A DNA stretch of 39,182 nucleotides from a virus: UHGV virus genome UHGV-0337819, one strand, 5' to 3'. A program made the translations under genes and the position numbers. Below the pieces are notes generated by a model. The model did not search any database. It had not been told where the DNA came from and saw only the letters and a list, made by a program, of their open reading frames with translations. Below are positions 3,077-31,597 of this stretch, piece after piece (the first letter of the stretch is position 1; every line of letters starts with the position of its first letter).

Positions 3077-6001
3077 TTGAACAATGAAGACTTAGTCTTA
3101 AAAATGATACTGGATGAATCAGGATTCTCCCAAGGTCTAAATTCGGCAGTAAAAAAGTTGCAAGGTTTTGATGGAGAGGTTGACAGAACAGGACAAAAAG
3201 GCGGCCGCTCTCTTGGGAGCATATGGACGTCGTTTGTTGGTAACTTTTTAGCCAGCGGAGCAACTAAAATAATTTCAAAAGGAATTGGGCTGATTACCAG
3301 CAACATCGATGGGGCCATTAATCGTGTGGATACGTTAAATAATGCAAACCGTGTATTTGAAAATATGGGCTTTTCAGCTGGTGAAACATCAAAAACAATG
3401 GATAGCTTAAAGAGGAGCATTCAAGGGTTGCCTACACCGTTAGATGGCGCTATTAAAGGTGTTCAATTAATCGCTTCATCAACAAATGACTTAGGAAAAT
3501 CAGAGCAAATTTTTGCAGCTTTAAATAATGGTATTCTCGGCTTTGGTGGGTCTGCAGAGATGGTAGACAATGCGATCATCCAGCTATCACAATCATTTTC
3601 AAATGGTAAAGTAGATGCGCAAACGTGGAACTCAATGATTAACAGTGGTTTGGGCCCAGCTTTAAACGCATTAGCGAAACAAATGGGGTTAACTGCTGGT
3701 CAGATGAAAGAAGGACTCTCCGATGGTTCAATTTCAGTTGAAGAATTCCAAGATTCTCTAATAAAATTGAATAAAGAGGGCGGTGGAGGTCTTAAATCAT
3801 TAGAACAGATTGCTAAAGACTCTACTGCAGGTATTAAAACCGGATTGGCTAACATGAAAACTGCGATTGTTCGTGGTGTGGCCAATGTTGTTACTAAAAT
3901 TGACGAAGGCTTAAAAAGTGCGGGCTTTGGAAGTATTAGTGAAATCATCGCTGATAAAGGGGCAAAGATGGAAGCGGCTTTATCTAAATTTGCTGAAATG
4001 ATACCGCCAATGATAAAAACAGTTAAAACATTGTATGATACGTTAAAGCCTTACGCACCGCTGCTTGCGGGTTTAGCTGGTAGCATTGGTACGTTGATGC
4101 TTGTGAATAAAGTGAATGCAGCATTTAAAGCTTGGAGAGAAGGTACAGAAGCACTTTCGATAGCTCAAGCAATTTTAAATAAGACAATGCTATCAAATCC
4201 TTTTGTTGCAATCTTAACTGCTGTAGTAGGGTTAGTCACAGCGTTTATTTATCTTTGGAAAACCAATGAAGGTTTTAGAGATGCTGTTAAAAACATTTGG
4301 AAAAACATACAGGAGGTCATTTCAAGCGCTGCTGATGTAGTTGTAAAAGCTTGGAATTCGACAATGGAATTCTTCAGCAATATGTGGGATGGTACAAAAG
4401 AAGCTTTTTCAAATGCTGGCACATGGATGAAAGAAGCACCTGGAAATGCAGCCGACTGGGTTAAAAACAAATGGAATGGCACTAAAGAATTCTTTAGTGG
4501 ACTTTGGGATTCAACAAAAGAAGGCTCAAAAAACACATGGGAAAACATCAAGCAGAGTGCTGCTGATAGTGCTAAAAATGTTGGTGAAAGTTTTAAAAAT
4601 GGCTTTGATAATGCGAAAGATTGGTTTAAGGGTGTTGGGAAATCAATATCAGATGTTTTCACAAAAGCTTTTGATTTTGTATGGAAATACATGGGGCCAT
4701 ATATAACAGGAATCAAAAATGCGTTTAAGATGGTTGTTAACGCTATGAAAGCGAACATTGAAAATATCAAAATGATCGCTGAAAATGTCGTTACTATTCT
4801 AAAAAATGTTCTGTTAGCTCCAATACTTTTCATCACATCAATGATTACAGGTGGATGGGAAGAAGCAAAAGAGAACATGATTGCTGTCTGGGATAATATT
4901 GCTGAAGCAGCTCAAACAATTTGGTTTGGTATTAAAAATATCTTTTATAACACAGTCACAGCTATTTCCTATTCAGTCACTTCTATTTTTAATGGATTGA
5001 TGTTGACAATTAAAAAGATTTGGATTGATGTGAAGTTATTTTTCACTTTGCTTTGGATTGATATCAAGTATGGAGCAATCAATATCTGGATTGAAGTTAA
5101 GTATTCCATAATTGAAATTTGGATAAATATTAAATTTGAAGCAATTAGAATATGGGAAAGTTTGAAAACTTGGTTCTTCGAAACAGTAGAAAACATTAAA
5201 AATGGTGTGATCGATGGCTGGAACAACCTAAAACAAGGAACCATTGATACATTTAATGCAACTGTTCAATGGTCAAAAGATACATGGTCCAATTTCAAAC
5301 AGTGGATTATTGATACGGCGGTTGGAATAAAAGATGGTGTTGTTCAAACCTGGTATAGAATTAGAAATGGCACAATAGAAACCTTCAACAACATGGTACA
5401 AGGTGCTAAAAACGCATGGAATAATCTCACAAGAAGTGTCAGTGATACAGTGTCGAATGTAAAACAAACTTTTGAAGATTTAAAACATGTTGATTTATTT
5501 GAAATTGGTAAAAACATCATTCAAGGATTGATTAATGGTATTGGATCTATGATTAACTCAGTTGGGGAAAAAATTCAAGAAGTAGCTGGTAATATCAAAG
5601 AAAAAATAAAAGGGGCTTTAGATATTCATTCTCCTTCGCGCTGGATGCGAGATATGATTGGTAAAAATATCGTGTTGGGTGTTGTGGATGGCATTGACCA
5701 AGAAAAAGGAACTTTGGATAAATCGGTTAAAAATATGGCTGATTTACCTACAGAATTACCGGATTTTTCTGTCACAGGTAGATATGCTAATCAACAGGAA
5801 TCACAAAGATCTAAATCAGATAAGAACAACAGCAATGCAACGACTACCTTTGGTGGTGATACCTTTAACATTAATTTACAAGCAATGGGTGAATTAGATG
5901 ATAAGCAATTAATGAGCATGGCTCAAAAATTAGTTAAATACATTCAAGTTGTCAAAAATAGAGATAGCGATGCAGTAGGAGGTGCTTTTGGTGGAATTTA
6001 A
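3077..6001 (+). CDS. tail tape measure protein
   Basis: 974 aa. Helical/coiled-coil N-terminus, central hydrophobic segments, and a long block of degenerate ~11-aa Trp-containing tandem repeats (KAWNSTMEFFSNMWDGTKEAFSN...WVKNKWNGTKEFFSGLWDSTKEGSKNTWENIK). Sits between chaperones and Dit. RBS GAAGGGAGGGGG lies upstream. Confidence 0.85.
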   Translation: MNNEDLVLKMILDESGFSQGLNSAVKKLQGFDGEVDRTGQKGGRSLGSIWTSFVGNFLASGATKIISKGIGLITSNIDGAINRVDTLNNANRVFENMGFSAGETSKTMDSLKRSIQGLPTPLDGAIKGVQLIASSTNDLGKSEQIFAALNNGILGFGGSAEMVDNAIIQLSQSFSNGKVDAQTWNSMINSGLGPALNALAKQMGLTAGQMKEGLSDGSISVEEFQDSLIKLNKEGGGGLKSLEQIAKDSTAGIKTGLANMKTAIVRGVANVVTKIDEGLKSAGFGSISEIIADKGAKMEAALSKFAEMIPPMIKTVKTLYDTLKPYAPLLAGLAGSIGTLMLVNKVNAAFKAWREGTEALSIAQAILNKTMLSNPFVAILTAVVGLVTAFIYLWKTNEGFRDAVKNIWKNIQEVISSAADVVVKAWNSTMEFFSNMWDGTKEAFSNAGTWMKEAPGNAADWVKNKWNGTKEFFSGLWDSTKEGSKNTWENIKQSAADSAKNVGESFKNGFDNAKDWFKGVGKSISDVFTKAFDFVWKYMGPYITGIKNAFKMVVNAMKANIENIKMIAENVVTILKNVLLAPILFITSMITGGWEEAKENMIAVWDNIAEAAQTIWFGIKNIFYNTVTAISYSVTSIFNGLMLTIKKIWIDVKLFFTLLWIDIKYGAINIWIEVKYSIIEIWINIKFEAIRIWESLKTWFFETVENIKNGVIDGWNNLKQGTIDTFNATVQWSKDTWSNFKQWIIDTAVGIKDGVVQTWYRIRNGTIETFNNMVQGAKNAWNNLTRSVSDTVSNVKQTFEDLKHVDLFEIGKNIIQGLINGIGSMINSVGEKIQEVAGNIKEKIKGALDIHSPSRWMRDMIGKNIVLGVVDGIDQEKGTLDKSVKNMADLPTELPDFSVTGRYANQQESQRSKSDKNNSNATTTFGGDTFNINLQAMGELDDKQLMSMAQKLVKYIQVVKNRDSDAVGGAFGGI

Positions 6002-13874: not shown

Positions 13875-13884
13875 GAAATAAGCA

Positions 13885-13921
13885 AATTCCTACTTCTCAT
13901 TACTAGAGGTAGGAATTTTTT
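13885..13921 (+). terminator. rho-independent terminator after the lysis cassette
   Basis: AATTCCTAC (13885-13893) and GTAGGAATT (13909-13917) form a 9-bp perfect inverted repeat, followed by TTTT. Confidence 0.6.
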
Positions 13922-13924
13922 CAA

Positions 13925-14205
13925 CGGTAAATTATGTTGAGATTTTTTTATTCTTATAGGTAAAAATGACCATACTTTGACCATACACTATAAGAAAATA
14001 TAGAAACTATCAGAACATAGGATTTAATACAAATCCCTATTTTATAAGTGTTGAAGAAAATTAGGGATTGTTAGAAAAATTAAATTTTAAAGTATCAGTT
14101 TATCCAGTAGCTAACTAGTGTAATAGCTCAAGCCTTTGTTTATCAAAGGTTTGGGCTTTTTTTGTTGGTTTGAAAAATATTTGACCATACTTTTGACCAT
14201 ACTAG
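13925..14205. other. attP-like region with integrase arm-type direct repeats
   Basis: TGACCATAC occurs at 13967-13975 and 13978-13986; TTGACCATAC occurs at 14181-14190 and 14194-14203. These are two tandem pairs about 215 bp apart. They flank the inverted repeat AATCCCTA...TAGGGATT (about 14033-14070) and a hairpin plus T-run at 14130-14163. The region lies immediately upstream of the integrase stop. Confidence 0.5.
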
Positions 14206-15360
14206 TTAAAAGCCGATGTATTTTGATAGTTTTTCGGTAGTTTTTTCTTTTCCATCATTTGTTAGATGTGTATAAGTATCTAAAGTTGTTTTTATGTTTG
14301 CATGTCCTAATCGTTCCTGAACTTCTTTATGATCTGCACCAGCATAGTATAATAAAGATGCATGCGTGTGTCTAAATCCGTGAAGCCCAATGTTTGGTAA
14401 GTTAGCCTTTTTACGATAAATATTATATCTATCTGTAATAGCTTGATTTATTGTAAATTCATTTTCTTCATTGGTGAAAATACGTGAGGGTTGTGTATAA
14501 CCAAGTTTAAGAAGATATTTTTTTTGCTCTAATTTCCATTTTTTTAAGATAGTTATTGTTTTTGCATCTAATATTAGTGTTCTGTTTGATTTTTTTGTTT
14601 TTGGAGTATTTGATACATAATAATGGTCAGATTTAGCAATTGTTTTGTTGATTTGTAGTTCACCAGTTTTAATGTTTAAATCGTCCCAAGTAAGAGCTAA
14701 CAACTCCCCTATCCTACATCCACTAAAAGCTAATAATCTGAATAATGTATAATCTCTTATTGTAATGTAGGTACTTTCGCTTTGTTCAATACTTTTTAAA
14801 AATATTTGAAGTTGATCTTTTGTATAAAATTTAATTTTCTTTTCTGATGTAATAATATCTTGATTTTTAGGAACTATTACATTAATCACTGGGTTTTGAT
14901 TGGTAACCCCTATGTTAATAGCGAATTTGAAGACTTGATTCATATAATTTATAAAAAGGGGATATTGTTTTGAACTACCTTTTGAATGCCATGTATTCAC
15001 GATTTTCTGACAATAAGCAGTTGAAATTTTTGATATTTCAATTTTTCCAAATGAAGGTAGTATGTGTTTTCTGAAGATTATTTCTGTTCGAGAGTAGCTA
15101 CTTTCTTTTACGGTATTTTTATAATTTTCTAGCCACATAAATGCTACTTCTTGGAATGTTATATTAGTGGAAGAGGGAATGCCATTTTTTTGAATTTCCA
15201 TTTCTAACCTTGCTAATGCAATTTTAGCCTCTTTTTGAGTGCGAAATCCTCTCTTAGTTGTATACTTCTTTTTTCCAGTTAGCGGATCGGTACCAAGATA
15301 TGTTTTGAAGTACCATGCTTTTTCACCATTTTTCTTTTGATATTGTTTTATCATTGCCAT
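14206..15360 (-). CDS. int: tyrosine-type site-specific integrase
   Basis: 384 aa. C-terminal catalytic region HGFRHTHASLL...HANIKTTLDTYTHL carries the R...HxxR...Y signature of tyrosine recombinases. N-terminal SAM-like arm-binding domain. Confidence 0.9.
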   Translation of the reverse strand: MAMIKQYQKKNGEKAWYFKTYLGTDPLTGKKKYTTKRGFRTQKEAKIALARLEMEIQKNGIPSSTNITFQEVAFMWLENYKNTVKESSYSRTEIIFRKHILPSFGKIEISKISTAYCQKIVNTWHSKGSSKQYPLFINYMNQVFKFAINIGVTNQNPVINVIVPKNQDIITSEKKIKFYTKDQLQIFLKSIEQSESTYITIRDYTLFRLLAFSGCRIGELLALTWDDLNIKTGELQINKTIAKSDHYYVSNTPKTKKSNRTLILDAKTITILKKWKLEQKKYLLKLGYTQPSRIFTNEENEFTINQAITDRYNIYRKKANLPNIGLHGFRHTHASLLYYAGADHKEVQERLGHANIKTTLDTYTHLTNDGKEKTTEKLSKYIGF

Positions 15361-15428
15361 TTAGAAAACCTCTTTCCAAGAACGTACGTTCGTTTTTATT
15401 TTTTTAAGAAAAGCCCGGAGGCTTTTCT

Positions 15429-15896
15429 TTACTCATTTAAATGTTGTATTGCATAGTCAGCTTCTTCTTGCGTGAATTTTTCTCCATATTCAGATGTCAG
15501 TTGATCTTTTATTGCATCAGGAGACATAGACATATCTTCTTGATAACTTTTTGCTTTTGCAAGGGCATTTTCATTATAATCTGCATTTAAATTATCAACT
15601 GCATATTGTGCTGCCTCGGCAGAGAATTTCTCTCCATGTTCTGATGTTAATTGATCATAAATTCCTGCTTTAGACATATGCATAGTATCAGAATATAATT
15701 TAGCTTTGTTTAGTGCAGATTTGTATTCTTGGGGTGTATTGTCTTTTGAATTGCTTTCTGTTTTTGCGTTATTTGAAGTGGAATCACTTCCAGAGCTCCC
15801 AGCACCTAGAAAAGCAAAACCTAAAATACATAAAATAATAAATCCAACAAAAACTCCAAAACAACCAAACATACCTTTCCCAAAACTTTTTAACAT
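15429..15896 (-). CDS. Ltp-like surface lipoprotein/membrane protein, putative superinfection exclusion
   Basis: Start chosen at the ATG (complement of 15894-15896), which has an AAGGAGG RBS 6 nt upstream; the supplied ORF extends to 15995. N-terminal TM segment, then two tandem copies of the ~45-aa repeat (SEHGEKFSAEAAQYAVDNLNADYNENALAKAK / SEYGEKFTQEEADYAIQHLNE) typical of the Ltp/host surface-exposed lipoprotein family. Confidence 0.55.
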   Translation of the reverse strand: MLKSFGKGMFGCFGVFVGFIILCILGFAFLGAGSSGSDSTSNNAKTESNSKDNTPQEYKSALNKAKLYSDTMHMSKAGIYDQLTSEHGEKFSAEAAQYAVDNLNADYNENALAKAKSYQEDMSMSPDAIKDQLTSEYGEKFTQEEADYAIQHLNE

Positions 15897-28551: not shown

Positions 28552-28968
28552 TTGATTCAATTGTTAAAAGAAGTTGATTTCAGTCAGACTAGAGCCAATG
28601 CGAGAGCCGTGTTGAAAAATTTTAGACGTTTGGACCGAATAGCTGGTCGTTCCTTAGTAGATGTTCGATCACCAATCATTACAGACATGCCAAAAGGTAT
28701 AAAGCATGGCAACAAAGCAGAAGATGCGTTGATCCAGATGATTGATGTCGAAGTAGAGCGTGATGCAATCCTAACGGCTTTGATGTCACTAAGCATTATA
28801 AGTCGTCAAATTCTTCACTACAGTTTTTGCGTGCAGGACCATTACTCTAATTACAAGATTGCTAGAGAAGTCGGCTATTCCGAAAGAAGTATTCAACGCA
28901 TGAAATCAGAAGCTTTGATTGAATTCGCAGAAGCTTACCGCAATGGAAAAATAATTGCATATAAATAA
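28552..28968 (+). CDS. arpU: ArpU-family late-gene transcriptional regulator
   Basis: 138 aa. N-terminus LLKEVDFSQTRANARAVLKNFRRLDRIAG. Size and position (last gene of the early/replication block, before the packaging module) match ArpU/RinA-type phage late activators. Confidence 0.65.
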   Translation: MIQLLKEVDFSQTRANARAVLKNFRRLDRIAGRSLVDVRSPIITDMPKGIKHGNKAEDALIQMIDVEVERDAILTALMSLSIISRQILHYSFCVQDHYSNYKIAREVGYSERSIQRMKSEALIEFAEAYRNGKIIAYK

Positions 28969-28973
28969 AATTT

Positions 28974-29002
28974 TTGGCGGTTTTTTGGCGGAAAGTTGGC
29001 GG
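28974..29002 (+). repeat. three direct TTGGCGG repeats with exact 11-bp periodicity
   Basis: TTGGCGG at 28974-28980, 28985-28991 and 28996-29002. Each is preceded by a T-run. They start 6 bp after the ArpU stop. Confidence 0.6.
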
Positions 29003-30118
29003 TTTTTATCAATATTTAGATGTTATTATGGTAGTGTCGAAAGATAAGGAGACGAGGGTAAGGCATGCATTACCTATCTTAGCTCCGTTTCGCTTATCTT
29101 TTGAGGCTACCTATAAAAAATAAAGAATAAGGATGTGGAAAGTCCAGTTCTTTCTGTCTCGTTTAGTCTAGGTAGCAAATATTGCAATAAACTTGGCATT
29201 AAGCTTACACGTAGACGTACGCCGAAAGCACTTGTCAAGATAGCGCTATGTAGTTTGCAATGATCACTCACAAATCATACGTTCTCAAACTAAAGAAATG
29301 AGGTGTAATTCCTCTCTCTTTTTTCTACAGGTTTGTGAGTGATTACTATTAAAAATTGAAAAATCAATAGATTTAAACCTAGTGAAGAGCATTTGAACAA
29401 TGTGCTAGGGTAGTATGGGATAAGTCGATAACTAAAATGAATTGGGATACTGATTGATTTTAGTGGTGGATTTTACAGCAATGTAAAAAGGGCTAATAGT
29501 AAAAGCTATTAATCGCAAAGTACTACGTGGAATTTGTGCAGGTGTAAGGTACGAAACTTTCGGGCGTGACAATAGACGCTCCAGTGGAGAATAATCTAAG
29601 TTAGGTGGAAGTGTGAGAAGCTTGGCAGACCTTAGAAACCTCAAACCAAGCGCTTTGCAGAGAAACTGAGAAATCAGTGTTTAACGAAAGAAGTCGGTAC
29701 GAGTAGCTTAATGCAGCAATTATTTACAGATGACAAATAATAAAAATGGGACTCTTATGTAAATGCTGAATGTTCAAGTGAAAGTTATTAGCCGGTAGAG
29801 CTAGATCATACAGAAAAAGCAAAGAGAAGCTATTGGGTAGCGCCCGATAGTTCAGCCTCTTTGGGTATGTGACTGAATAACACTGTAAACAAAGGAAGCA
29901 GGAAGAAAAGCCTAAATCTGTTGATTTTTGAGTTTTTAATTATCGCTGTGGCGGAAGTAGAGAGACGCAAAGGTGTAGATAGTGAGCGTAAGGCGCACTA
30001 TTGAGACCTTGTACAAAACTAGAGAGGGCTAGTGCATGAGTGGTGCAATTCCACTCCAGCGATATTAAGATTGCGGTAGACAATCTTAAAAATGGCATAA
30101 TGGGAAAATCCTTTCGGT

Positions 30119-30189
30119 TGGCGTGTAGCATCTGGGATGCAACGAGCATATTGCGAGATAAGAAGCAGGTTCGATTCCTGCCACGCCAA
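30119..30189 (+). other. tRNA-like element: 7-bp acceptor stem plus canonical T-arm, but no recognisable D or anticodon arm
   Basis: TGGCGTG (30119-30125) pairs perfectly with CACGCCA (30182-30188). T-arm is GCAGG-TTCGATT-CCTGC (30165-30181), with the canonical TTCGA T-loop. Discriminator A at 30189; no encoded CCA. The interior holds only the hairpin GCATC-TGG-GATGC. Confidence 0.45.
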
Positions 30190-30357
30190 TAGGTAGCTTT
30201 GCTACTTAATAAAAGAATCGTCAATAGATGTTTCTTACTTTAACGGTCGGTTCACCTCCTTCGGAACAGCCAGCCTGCGAAACAGGATAAAGTGGCTAGC
30301 AACCTAGTATTGCTAAATAAGTGTTAGATTGGCTAGGCAGTCTAACATAAATCTTTA

Positions 30358-30389
30358 GACTACTCAATATAAATGAGTGGTCTTTTTTT
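30358..30389 (+). terminator. rho-independent terminator
   Basis: GACTACTCA (30358-30366), loop ATATAAA, TGAGTGGTC (30374-30382; one G-U pair), then TTTTTTT (30383-30389). Confidence 0.6.
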
Positions 30390-30547
30390 GTACATAAAAA
30401 GCCACTAGACCCAGTCTAGTGGCTAGGTAGCATTCGTGCACAATATTTTTTGATTGCTATTTACAAAAAGGAGTTGCTACCTATGAATAGTATATCAAGA
30501 AGTGATTTATTGAATCAAGTACATAAAAACAACTAGGAGGGAAAAAC

Positions 30548-30781
30548 ATGATCCAAAACTATTGGTATGTATCGTTAACACATAAATATCCACAGTCGAA
30601 CCGCTCAACTGGTTCAATGCGTGTTGTACTGTCTGTGCTGATAAAAGAAAATGTATCCATTGTCAAAATGATGAGAGAAGCTACGCCAAAGGAAATCGAT
30701 GCGTGCAAGCTAGTTTATTGTGGTTATGGCGGTTGGAAAGATAAGCATATACAAGAGAATATAGAGAAGTACATGAAATGA
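30548..30781 (+). CDS. hypothetical protein, first gene of the late operon
   Basis: 77 aa; RBS AGGAGGG at 30533-30539. Confidence 0.35.
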   Translation: MIQNYWYVSLTHKYPQSNRSTGSMRVVLSVLIKENVSIVKMMREATPKEIDACKLVYCGYGGWKDKHIQENIEKYMK

Positions 30782-30811: not shown

Positions 30812-31597
30812 ATGGCAAAGTACACAGAGTGGCTAACCGATGAAGGGTTAATCAAAATCGAAGGATGGGCACGAGATGGCCTCATCGATAAGCAGATAGC
30901 CCAGAATATCGGGGTAGCTTATTCAACTTTCAGAGAATGGGTAAAAAAATTTCCAGCACTTTCGGCATCCTTAAAAAGAGGAAAAGAAGTTGTTGATAGA
31001 CAAGTTGAAAATGCTTTGTTTAAAAGTGCTATAGGATACGAATACACTGAAATTACTAAAGAAAGAATGGCAGATAACGGGCAAAAGAAACGACATAATG
31101 GTGAATCATCTTTGACAGAAGAAGAGTGGGAAACAGCACTTGCTTATTTTAATTACAGTTGTGCATATTGTGGTAATTCAGATGAGATGACTAAAGACCA
31201 TCTTGACCCATTAAAAAATGGCGGCGAGTTGACTTTTTCAAATGTAGTTCCTGCATGTCGTTCTTGTAATTCAAGCAAAAAGGATCATCAATGGCTTTCG
31301 TGGTATCAAAACCAAGACTTTTACGACAGATACAAAGCAAATAAAATCACTGATTATATATCATTCGTGTTAAGCTTTCCGAAAAAAGAAGAAAACACAG
31401 AGCTAGTTGTTACAAAAGAAATAACTAAATTGGTAGCCCCTAATCCAACTGCGGCTATTTTCTGGTTGAAAAATAGAAAGCCAGACGAATGGCGAGATCG
31501 AAAAGAAACTCAAATTTCTGGCGAAATGTCTGTTAGCAATCCATTCACTAACTTATCTGAAGAAGAATTAAGAAGGTTAGCTAAAGATGATGGATAA
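30812..31597 (+). CDS. terS: terminase small subunit with an inserted HNH endonuclease domain (TerS-HNH fusion)
   Basis: 261 aa. The N-terminal ~80 aa are an HTH of the TerS DNA-binding type (GWARDGLIDKQIAQNIGVAYSTFREWVKK...KEVVDRQVENALFKSAIG). The central HNH core is CAYCGNSDEMTKDHLDPLKNGGELTFSNVVPACRSCNSSKKDH. The C-terminus (AAIFWLKNRKPDEWRDRKE) matches the conserved TerS tail. Its stop overlaps the TerL start. Confidence 0.55.
   Translation: MAKYTEWLTDEGLIKIEGWARDGLIDKQIAQNIGVAYSTFREWVKKFPALSASLKRGKEVVDRQVENALFKSAIGYEYTEITKERMADNGQKKRHNGESSLTEEEWETALAYFNYSCAYCGNSDEMTKDHLDPLKNGGELTFSNVVPACRSCNSSKKDHQWLSWYQNQDFYDRYKANKITDYISFVLSFPKKEENTELVVTKEITKLVAPNPTAAIFWLKNRKPDEWRDRKETQISGEMSVSNPFTNLSEEELRRLAKDDG

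Follow-up and report, generated by a model that had tools for sequence, protein, structure and literature searches.

What occupies the 1.58 kb of DNA between a late transcriptional activator gene and the terminase genes in the virus genome UHGV-0337819? To address this question we analysed the whole 39,182-nucleotide (nt) stretch of that genome (the window; all coordinates are those of the window, and the plus strand is meant unless stated otherwise). The region, 28969–30547, lies between an arpU-family gene (28552–28968) and a 77-codon open reading frame (ORF; 30548), behind which come the terminase genes (30812, 31587). An earlier reading made from the letters alone (the sequence-only reading) had taken it for a giant structured non-coding RNA of the ROOL/GOLLD class or, alternatively, for an elaborate cos/pac region. 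The region is a composite non-coding leader, of which the ROOL RNA occupies only ~0.6 kb out of 1.58 kb. In order it contains ArpU binding boxes, an extended -10 element, two hairpins, ROOL, a split tRNA-Leu-like element, a small hairpin, a tRNA-Arg-like element, a terminator and an inverted repeat, a modular makeup that recurs in relatives. We read the whole as the long untranslated leader of the late (packaging, morphogenesis and lysis) operon, carrying non-coding RNA cargo, chiefly ROOL, and give this reading a probability of about 0.8. BLAST identifies the source as a temperate Enterococcus phage of the phiFL/phiEf11 kind; together with the gene order this confirms the context described beforehand, a Lactobacillales-type temperate phage with the region upstream of its packaging genes and near a tRNA-like element.

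Does the region hold a known large RNA? The covariance models of Rfam 15, run over the whole window, place ROOL (RF03087) at 29354–29931 on the plus strand with 268.6 bits, against a gathering threshold of 99.1. The match is full length (model positions 1–574 of 574, E = 1.6e-60), and permissive filters give the same result. This was the Infernal/Rfam test that the sequence-only reading had proposed, and it bears out the ROOL half of the class assignment; the GOLLD half falls, for the Infernal scan finds no match to the GOLLD model in the window, either at the gathering threshold or at E ≤ 1. Nor do the other large-RNA models of Rfam match the window, permissive filters included. The strongest inverted repeat of the region, 29348–29375 with 29913–29940 (28 nt, 89% complementary), is the closing helix of ROOL and reaches a few bases past the Rfam bounds. 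With this helix the RNA runs from 29348 to 29940.

The fold is preserved among relatives. On ten ROOL copies from Enterococcus phages RNAalifold gives 165 pairs, 59 of which are kept through compensatory, two-sided changes, the extended closing helix included; the covariation that was to be looked for in related phages is therefore present. (The consensus line of the Rfam ROOL model holds nested pairs only.) A variable A/U-rich stretch at ~29715–29775 (alignment columns ~385–447) is unalignable and receives low posterior probabilities in the model alignment; as expected, it matches the disordered linker of the family, which lies in the cage interior. Given the full-length Rfam match, the covarying fold and the closing helix, the identity of 29348–29940 as ROOL, with its bounds and fold, is certain. 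The core belongs to an already known family with solved structures and is no new kind of element.

Where else does this RNA occur? BLAST aligns the ROOL segment at ~74% identity with sequence that carries no annotation in dozens of large Enterococcus myophages, and Rfam finds full-length ROOL in eight further Enterococcus phage loci, at 222–268 bits. One of these copies (L121, 1175–1706, minus strand) is a natural variant from which a hairpin subdomain of ~50 nt is gone (alignment columns 66–115) and which still scores 222 bits; it could reveal a dispensable part of ROOL. A scan of viral contigs for a ROOL core motif (ACAATAGACG N8-16 AATAAT) gave 127 matches, known ROOL loci included. Of these, 98 lacked any other ROOL block and the sole new ROOL was that of L342, so the scan is poor for a broad survey of ROOL contexts.

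Is protein encoded here as well? The ORF list agrees with the claim that 28969–30547 has no plus-strand ORF of 60 codons or more. Only one stretch of this kind in the window is longer, 13875–15705, which by its strand skew and ORF gaps, without annotation, looks like a minus-strand lysogeny module. Six ORFs of 42–93 amino acids lie inside the region on either strand, and a Pfam scan matches none of them to a family. The lower AT content noted earlier is real and modest (38.4% GC, compared with 34.9% for the whole window). All the helices listed from the letters were found and are perfect: 29041–29048 with 29093–29100, 29263–29274 with 29332–29343, and the hairpins at 30066–30088, 30323–30346 and 30400–30424. 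Folding energies of the sub-regions lie far below those of shuffled sequences, with z-scores from -3.8 to -7.1 for most and -6.0 for 30350–30430.

How firmly is ROOL tied to this place? We mapped 80 sibling loci that encode an ArpU relative against the region. ROOL is present in four (L060, L063, L064, L065). In many of the others the upstream module is joined to a tRNA within ~50 nt, and with ARAGORN nearly all siblings (L006–L085, locus positions ~4600–5700) yield a single tRNA behind arpU, its identity varying among Asn, Arg, Glu, Trp, Lys, Gln and Asp. Because the siblings share the upstream module but mostly carry a tRNA only, ROOL is an optional insertion between the second upstream hairpin (hairpin B) and the tRNA position. 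We refer to this place as the slot.

Could ROOL nevertheless be part of something larger? The sequence-only reading had one giant RNA span the entire 1.58 kb, its domain perhaps closed by the 6-bp pairs 29106/30426 and 29171/30476. That claim fails on both counts: the strongest inverted repeat is the closing helix of ROOL itself, and ROOL covers only ~595 nt, the remainder being made up of distinct modules, each of which can be present or absent on its own in siblings. A narrower form of the idea makes the whole 1.4 kb one RNA, closed by long-range pairing of GCUACCUA with UAGGUAGC, with ROOL merely its central domain. It draws on motif copies that are perfectly complementary (10 bp between 29169–29178 and 30474–30483), strongly enriched and conserved in the slot, and on a terminator that bounds the unit at 30390. 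Yet ROOL closes on itself by its 28-bp covarying helix, and the modules separate in siblings, where the upstream module occurs with a tRNA and no ROOL, and the pair of tRNA-like elements likewise without ROOL. Moreover, the nearest complementary partners of the motif copies are local (29106 with 29169, 30424 with 30476), many siblings have unpaired copies, and no Rfam family extends over the flanks. We consider a single giant RNA very improbable.

What lies directly behind ROOL? The closing helix ends at 29940, and at 29942 begins the acceptor stem of a split tRNA-Leu-like element of 123 nt (TLM-1, 29942–30064), defined by sibling alignment and covariation. Its acceptor pairs 29942–29948 with 30057–30063 over 7 bp (ATCGCTG/CAGCGAT), followed by a discriminator A at 30064. 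The D-arm, which starts at 29951, is of tRNA-Leu type; the T-arm (30038–30056), with a 6-bp T-stem and the loop TGCAATT, adjoins the 3' strand of the acceptor. At the position of the anticodon arm sits a middle of 64 non-conserved nt, wholly different between phages, whose length in siblings ranges from absent (phiFL2A) to ~255 nt.

If the middle is so variable, is the frame around it conserved? In 102 of 140 distinct T-arm contexts the expected 5' partner is present, as against 0.07% in shuffled upstream sequence; the two halves were defined in this test by the D-arm and T-loop motifs only. In 55 frames selected without any pairing requirement, 94.3% of the cells are paired, compared with 79.4% after shuffling and 29–44% after sliding. 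Double-sided changes number 144 where 40 are expected, and six of the seven acceptor pairs and three of the four free T-stem pairs covary. Standard tools pass the element by. In the window there is no ARAGORN match and no Rfam match at E ≤ 1; elsewhere Rfam gives none at E ≤ 1 in Listeria phage 188, none at E ≤ 0.1 in PSA, phiLNTR2 and SBSphiJ2, and none at E ≤ 0.01 in B054, LP-101 and LP-HM00113468. BLAST with the 3' half-frame retrieves 170 phage records, from Listeria, Bacillus, Enterococcus, Leuconostoc and Brochothrix. Full frames whose acceptor stems are unrelated in sequence yet complementary occur in Listeria phages 188, PSA, B054, LP-101 and LP-HM00113468, in Leuconostoc phage phiLNTR2 and in Bacillus phage SBSphiJ2. 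A scan of bacterial genomes for the T-arm pattern, which serves as a negative control only and says nothing on host range, gave at least 120 chance matches, with no split frame among the matches listed. We conclude that TLM-1 is a covarying family, absent from Rfam, in phages of Enterococcus, Listeria, Bacillus and Leuconostoc.

The sequence-only reading had counted a single tRNA-like module. The module is there, but there are two of them, both within 250 nt of ROOL. Behind TLM-1, and separated from it by hairpin C (30066–30088, z = -3.9), which shows a compensatory A-T to G-C change in L060 and L062, lies a degenerate tRNA-Arg-like element (TLM-2, 30119–30189). Rfam reports it as a marginal tRNA (RF00005, 33.5 bits against a threshold of 29). 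Its acceptor (TGGCGTG/CACGCCA) and T-arm are intact and its D-arm is shortened. The anticodon arm contributes no more than 8 aligned nt, ARAGORN calls no tRNA here, and folding yields no anticodon stem. As the cloverleaf is incomplete we call TLM-2 tRNA-like and not a tRNA. It is homologous to the sibling slot tRNAs that bear the acceptor TGGCGTG/CACGCCA, and where it is paired with TLM-1 it is 90–93% conserved, in eight loci. Both elements are conserved in structure. The slot tRNAs that read as Arg, Lys, Glu, Gln and Asp have this acceptor, followed by A, in common; their T-arms are similar and their anticodon regions differ, as if one scaffold had been re-targeted.

Might everything outside ROOL, then, be the functionless remains of decayed tRNA genes and the scars of recombination? 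The lost anticodon arm of TLM-2, the highly mosaic slot and the non-conserved middle of TLM-1 would all fit such a history. Decay does not account, however, for the covariation of the TLM-1 acceptor and T stems in four genera (94% pairing), for the compensatory changes that preserve the structure of hairpin C and of the terminator, or for the 90–93% conservation of TLM-2 together with TLM-1 in eight loci. We therefore hold decay to be quite improbable.

Where would transcription of this leader begin? Immediately behind arpU stand three ArpU binding boxes, 7-nt direct repeats of TTGGCGG at 28974, 28985 and 28996 (28974–29002), recognised by their identity to the boxes of phiFL2A. The first begins 6 nt past the arpU stop codon, and all three are unchanged across the 80 sibling loci. 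In phiFL2A, ArpU shifts the boxes in gels, and replacement of the boxes abolishes both ArpU binding and ArpU-dependent expression of terS; deletion of arpU stops late transcription and lysis (PMC3753634). The arpU gene of the window (28552–28968) is a 138-amino-acid ORF with 92–95% nucleotide identity to the annotated ArpU genes of phiFL3A, phiEf11 and IME197. Because Pfam gives no match for its product, the assignment rests on homology to these annotated genes and to the studied ArpU of phiFL2A (PMC3753634). An extended -10 element (TGTTATTAT, 29021–29029) follows the boxes: the pattern TGnTAnnAT stands exactly 18 nt past the third box in 80 of 80 sibling loci, in 20 sequence variants, and the start of a long hairpin comes after it. 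This conservation points to a late promoter at 29021–29029 with a start at ~29036–29038.

Two hairpins separate this putative promoter from ROOL. Hairpin A (29026–29116) is a long stem-loop of -40.6 kcal/mol (z = -7.1 for 29022–29117) that would lie at the transcript's 5' end; at the same position in phiFL2A stands a hairpin of unlike sequence (atcgaaagtcaaa/tttgactttcgat). The sole Rfam match at hairpin A, MIR848 at 21.9 bits, is meaningless. Hairpin B (29261–29345) has a perfect 12-bp stem (z = -4.7 for 29255–29348), is kept at 77–86% identity in most siblings and always stands directly upstream of the cargo, mostly a tRNA. Where its stem differs from that of phiFL2A, the differences are paired changes. 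Inside it a small hairpin (29300–29314, with a 4-bp GC-rich stem, GAGG/CCTC) is followed by a U-rich tract (29315–29326, TCTCTTTTTTCT); its phiFL2A counterpart is GAGGT/ACCTC with CTCTTTTTTCT. This inner hairpin resembles a weak terminator, and may, speculatively, be the terminator that the phiFL2A authors placed between arpU and terS. If it is one, ArpU might act partly by antitermination, like lambda Q, a notion just as speculative. The 3' end of ROOL (29913–29940, TTTTTGAGTTTTTAAT) resembles the 3' arm of hairpin B (29330–29345, GTTTGTGAGTGATTA). In siblings without ROOL this arm abuts the tRNA-like element, and the resemblance may be a trace of ROOL insertion.

If ROOL lies on a late-leader transcript, how would its ends be made? 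Transcription would probably start at ~29037, at the extended -10 element 18 nt past the third ArpU box, and so include ROOL. The primary transcript would end at the 30390 terminator, giving ~1.35 kb, close to the length predicted from the letters, or read through into terS. The tRNA-like elements could then act as punctuation, host RNase P cutting at 29941/29942 and tRNA 3' processing after 30189 freeing the non-coding RNA from the messenger, a proposal to which we give slightly less than even odds. The RNase P cut would leave the ROOL 3' end one nucleotide past the closing helix. In a variant that we hold more tentatively, the tRNA-like element would stay on ROOL as a displayed 3' appendage.

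Several lines of evidence bear on punctuation, the strong covariation of the TLM-1 frame among them. One is position. A tRNA or tRNA-like element starts 1–17 nt past the ROOL helix in five independent contexts, two myophages included. In L060, as in L220 with its 74% identical ROOL, the split element stands 2–5 nt past ROOL, and myophage EFP01 has a divergent version of it there; in EFDG1, also a myophage, a real tRNA-Met follows after ~17 nt, within a tRNA array. Another is the late transcript of phiFL2A, whose sole 5' end by rapid amplification of cDNA ends (RACE) is a G 118 bp upstream of terS (PMC3753634). This end (L206:3594) falls 3 nt past the discriminator of the phiFL2A TLM-2 (Rfam 3519–3591), ~650 bp downstream of the ArpU boxes. 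The authors saw only RNAs of 2–4 kb and proposed extensive processing (PMC3753634). The published start of the late operon is thus probably, or at least may be, a tRNA processing site, contrary to the published reading.

What weighs against this account of expression and processing? The phiFL2A authors themselves read the RACE end as a transcription start, with a terminator between arpU and the terS promoter (PMC3753634). A scan for sigma-70 patterns shows no excess of promoter-like sites in the leader (8, compared with 6.5 in shuffles), so that the proposed promoter leans on its conservation. A strong terminator (30357–30390) stands between ROOL and terS; late genes transcribed from the proposed promoter would accordingly need read-through, antitermination (by ArpU) or a second promoter. 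In three myophages ~100–330 nt separate ROOL from the next tRNA downstream, and L342 has nothing tRNA-like behind its ROOL. TLM-1 departs from a canonical RNase P substrate in its 13-bp stack of acceptor and T stems, in a G for U at T-loop position 55 and in having no encoded CCA. The Rfam model of the Listeria small RNA rliG (267 nt) runs ~105 positions past the point where the split element begins in Listeria phages (L556: 829/830). It thus appears to cross the leader/TLM-1 boundary as one small RNA, which suggests that the element can stay attached; the published RliG probably already contains an unrecognised copy. Finally, promoter, ends and processing in the window phage itself are deduced from its sequence.

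A different reading takes the tRNA-like elements not to be processing signals at all. They would either remain on ROOL as 3' cargo displayed by the cage or be independent tRNA mimics, such as defence decoys or substrates of leucyl-tRNA synthetase. The gap between the ROOL helix and the acceptor stem is a single nucleotide, and the rliG model seems to hold the element within one small RNA. The frame keeps a tRNA-Leu-like D-arm and the A discriminator, and recognition of tRNA-Leu is independent of the anticodon. Ling et al. found that 3'-end fusions to ROOL, a tRNA precursor included, are displayed radially and leave the octamer undisturbed (PMC12515178). On the other hand, the phiFL2A 5' end at the 3' boundary of the second element implies cleavage at tRNA-like boundaries, and the split element is also found where there is no ROOL, and behind unrelated cargo. 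Its middle, absent in one copy and ~255 nt long in another and unrelated between copies, is hard to fit to a single decoding or decoy function. We judge these roles rather unlikely; cutting by the tRNA-processing enzymes of the host is the simplest reading, although at least some copies may stay attached.

What else can fill the slot? In sibling L083 (4320–4629) it holds rli28 (147.7 bits) together with a RatA antitoxin RNA on the opposite strand, the latter implying a type I toxin–antitoxin module in a late leader. In phiFL2A a non-coding segment of ~220 nt (L206, 3136–3355) takes the place of ROOL, with hairpin B on one side and a minimal split element on the other; Rfam matches none of it, and it may represent a further cargo RNA. 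In Listeria phages the slot, which there lies behind the late regulator and ahead of HNH/terminase genes, is occupied by rliG or rli62, and the split tRNA-like element comes next. The mcrA RNA motif (RF03010) lies 60–120 nt downstream of the split element in Listeria phages (L550, 1647–1698; L555, 993–1043; L556, 1019–1069). It stands just upstream of the HNH endonuclease gene in PSA, and in LP-101 the HNH gene is one ORF further on. With several RNA motifs in series, the Listeria leader is a chain of RNA motifs.

Does the phage need such cargo? In Listeria phage phi10403S, lysogens with silent late genes express rliG strongly, and its deletion leaves the virion yield unreduced (PMC7397523). 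By analogy, lysogens too may make ROOL, and not only cells late in infection. In L. salivarius ROOL reaches an abundance equal to that of 16S rRNA and is non-essential (PMC12286853). Because rliG is dispensable and the L. salivarius ROOL non-essential, ROOL in the window is best seen as accessory cargo and very probably forms no part of the packaging machinery.

What of the motif that recurs in the region? The sequence-only reading had pointed to a recurring motif, GCTACCTAT against GGTAGC, and the signal is stronger than it claimed. The two are parts of the 8-mer TAGGTAGC and its reverse complement, present in five copies in the region: 29106–29113 (minus), 29169–29176 (plus), 30190–30197 (plus), 30424–30431 (plus) and 30476–30483 (minus). 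Shuffled sequences contain on average 0.04 copies and at most two in 20,000 shuffles, and the window has one other copy. Across 63 sibling loci the 2 kb that follow arpU hold 162 copies and the 4 kb that precede it five, an enrichment of ~65-fold per kb. The copy at 30190–30197 abuts the 3' end of TLM-2. The five siblings inspected (L010, L029, L056, L060 and phiFL2A) likewise have a copy directly behind the slot tRNA or tRNA-like element, and that of phiFL2A contains the RACE end.

With this motif in hand, we propose that TLM-1 represents an unrecognised, widespread class of phage RNA (in phages of Enterococcus, Listeria, Bacillus, Leuconostoc and Brochothrix), its top half of acceptor, D and T arms conserved and its insert at the anticodon-arm position freely exchangeable. 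Together with TAGGTAGC it would form a cassette system that expresses, delimits and perhaps processes interchangeable cargo (ROOL, rliG, rli62, tRNAs) in late leaders and tRNA arrays. We advance this tentatively, as a proposal that falls somewhat short of even chances.

Could the region, or part of it, instead be a DNA site for the terminase, cos or pac, its repeats and hairpins being protein-binding elements of the DNA? It lies directly upstream of the terminase genes, it carries the five 8-mer copies in both orientations, and the inverted repeat at 30400–30424, with its invariant arms, resembles a protein site. The small terminase subunit TerS (30812–31597) contains an HNH domain (Pfam, residues 117–158), as had been stated from the letters. 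HNH proteins accompany cos packaging in several phage groups. For the ROOL block, however, the cos/pac alternative finds no support, since the block is missing from 76 of the 80 siblings and is a covarying RNA. The 8-mer, moreover, is present in 3–5 copies alongside at least three unrelated types of TerL, so that the repeats are not inherited together with a specific terminase, which counts against a terminase recognition site. The copy that abuts a tRNA 3' end suggests a role at the RNA level or at a junction. A signal acting at the RNA level, or a junction between cassettes, fits TAGGTAGC better, and it could be a protein site too.

The HNH argument is itself weak, for this TerS is of the phiFL2A type with an HNH insertion: residues 1–84 and 200–250 match residues 1–84 (81% identity) and 92–142 of phiFL2A TerS. 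The HNH segment, ~115 residues from 84 to 200, may stem from a mobile endonuclease that inserted in frame. phiFL2A, besides, is described as a transducing phage (PMC3753634). A cross-tabulation of TerS type with the 3' segment says little, since most siblings carry a different TerS. The GenBank records of siblings VEsP-1 and IME197 start at terS by convention and are uninformative on physical ends. Altogether a terminase site is an improbable explanation of the region, and a DNA-level role in packaging or regulation is possible for 30390–30547.

How does the leader end? The hairpin and T7 run that had been noticed from the letters are recovered by a terminator pattern scan as an intrinsic terminator at 30357–30390 (10-bp stem, 7-nt loop, T7). 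Siblings keep a hairpin and T-run here with differing stem sequences, so the terminator is conserved in structure by compensatory change, the signature of a working terminator. The block that follows behaves in the opposite way. At 30390–30432, GTACATAAAAAG-CCACTAGA-loop-TCTAGTGG-CTAGGTAGC is nearly invariant in sequence across siblings with different terminators and downstream genes. Its centre, 30400–30424, is a perfect 11-bp inverted repeat with invariant arms (CCACTAGA/TCTAGTGG), and it is flanked by GTACATAAAAA (repeated at 30519) and CTAGGTAGC. Because the arms are invariant and the loop alone varies, 30390–30432 looks like a candidate protein-binding site more than an RNA helix. A putative 17-codon ORF lies at 30483–30536 (MNSISRSDLLNQVHKNN), with AAAGGAG 7 nt upstream and a start codon that overlaps a copy of the GCTACCTA motif. 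The first ORF after the leader (30548–30781, 77 amino acids) matches no Pfam family.

Why should the surroundings of a known RNA matter? A 2026 review still terms the cellular function of ROOL unknown (PMC12990946), and despite several high-resolution structures its context is one of the few functional clues. Here that context includes an activator-dependent late promoter, defined in phiFL2A, upstream, and a tRNA/small-RNA slot with interchangeable cargo. It also includes a closing helix that abuts a tRNA-like element in several independent lineages and, in Listeria, a slot RNA that is expressed in lysogeny and dispensable for virions. It suggests that the linkage of ROOL and GOLLD to tRNAs reflects co-transcription and tRNA-type processing. 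If RNase P and RNase Z do cut at the elements, this would be a bacterial-virus counterpart of maturation of the MALAT1-mascRNA type and would explain the constant adjacency of ROOL and GOLLD to tRNAs. Three features merit further attention: the way the leader is built around ROOL, the split family of tRNA-like elements, so far uncatalogued, and the TAGGTAGC motif.

How does the window compare with known systems? ROOL was described in 2017 by Weinberg et al. as an RNA of mean length 581 nt, found in prophages and often near tRNAs (PMC5737381). Cryo-electron microscopy shows a flat, multi-junction monomer that assembles into an RNA-only cage (PMC12286853). For the 580-nt ROOL of E. faecalis (Efa), seen earlier in chromosomes of that species, monomer, tetramer and octamer were solved by two groups (PDB 9ISV, 9J3R, 9J3T; PMC12990946, PMC12515178, PMC12191101). 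Self-assembly into a hexameric or octameric cage is known for the Efa, Lsa and env-120 RNAs (PMC12286853, PMC12990946, PMC12191101). The window ROOL shares with the solved Efa RNA the full-length model match, a length of ~580–595 nt, the closing helix, the multi-stem junctions, the variable linker and the host genus; with published ROOLs generally it shares a prophage context beside tRNA or tRNA-like genes. We detected no structural difference from published ROOL, the comparison being made through the covariance model. The ArpU-controlled position in a late leader and the tRNA-like element that abuts the 3' end are absent from the ROOL literature we examined. GOLLD is likewise a large, ornate, cage-forming phage RNA near tRNAs, which are sometimes embedded in its linker (PMC12286853, PMC12990946), but in sequence and fold it is unrelated to ROOL.

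The closest relative of the promoter is the Ltr/ArpU late promoter of phiFL2A (Quiles-Puchalt et al. 2013, PMC3753634), with the same boxes right after arpU, the same spacing to the -10 element and homologous ArpU and TerS. The leader from boxes to terS measures 1.8 kb with ROOL in the window, as against ~0.8 kb in phiFL2A. The Listeria prophage small RNAs rliG (RF02415) and rli62 (RF01486) occupy the same slot and have the same split tRNA-like element downstream; unlike ROOL they are much smaller, and they have no sequence similarity to ROOL or to the leader of the window.

TLM-1 itself calls to mind the tRNA-like domain of tmRNA, which also builds its acceptor from the 5' and 3' ends and has a T-arm, a D-loop analogue and a large insert that replaces the anticodon arm. 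TLM-1 differs in having neither a tmRNA match in ARAGORN or Rfam nor a tag reading frame, and in that its insert is non-conserved and sometimes absent. Punctuation by tRNA-like structures is known from the tRNA-like/pre-miRNA units of murine gammaherpesvirus 68 and from mitochondria, where tRNAs punctuate the transcript. Those systems and MALAT1-mascRNA are eukaryotic or organellar; in the window cleavage is predicted, and a variable insert replaces the anticodon arm. In MALAT1-mascRNA (PMC8457004), as in the window, a large non-coding RNA stands directly before a tRNA-like structure, and recognition of that structure by RNase P or RNase Z would set where the adjoining RNA ends.

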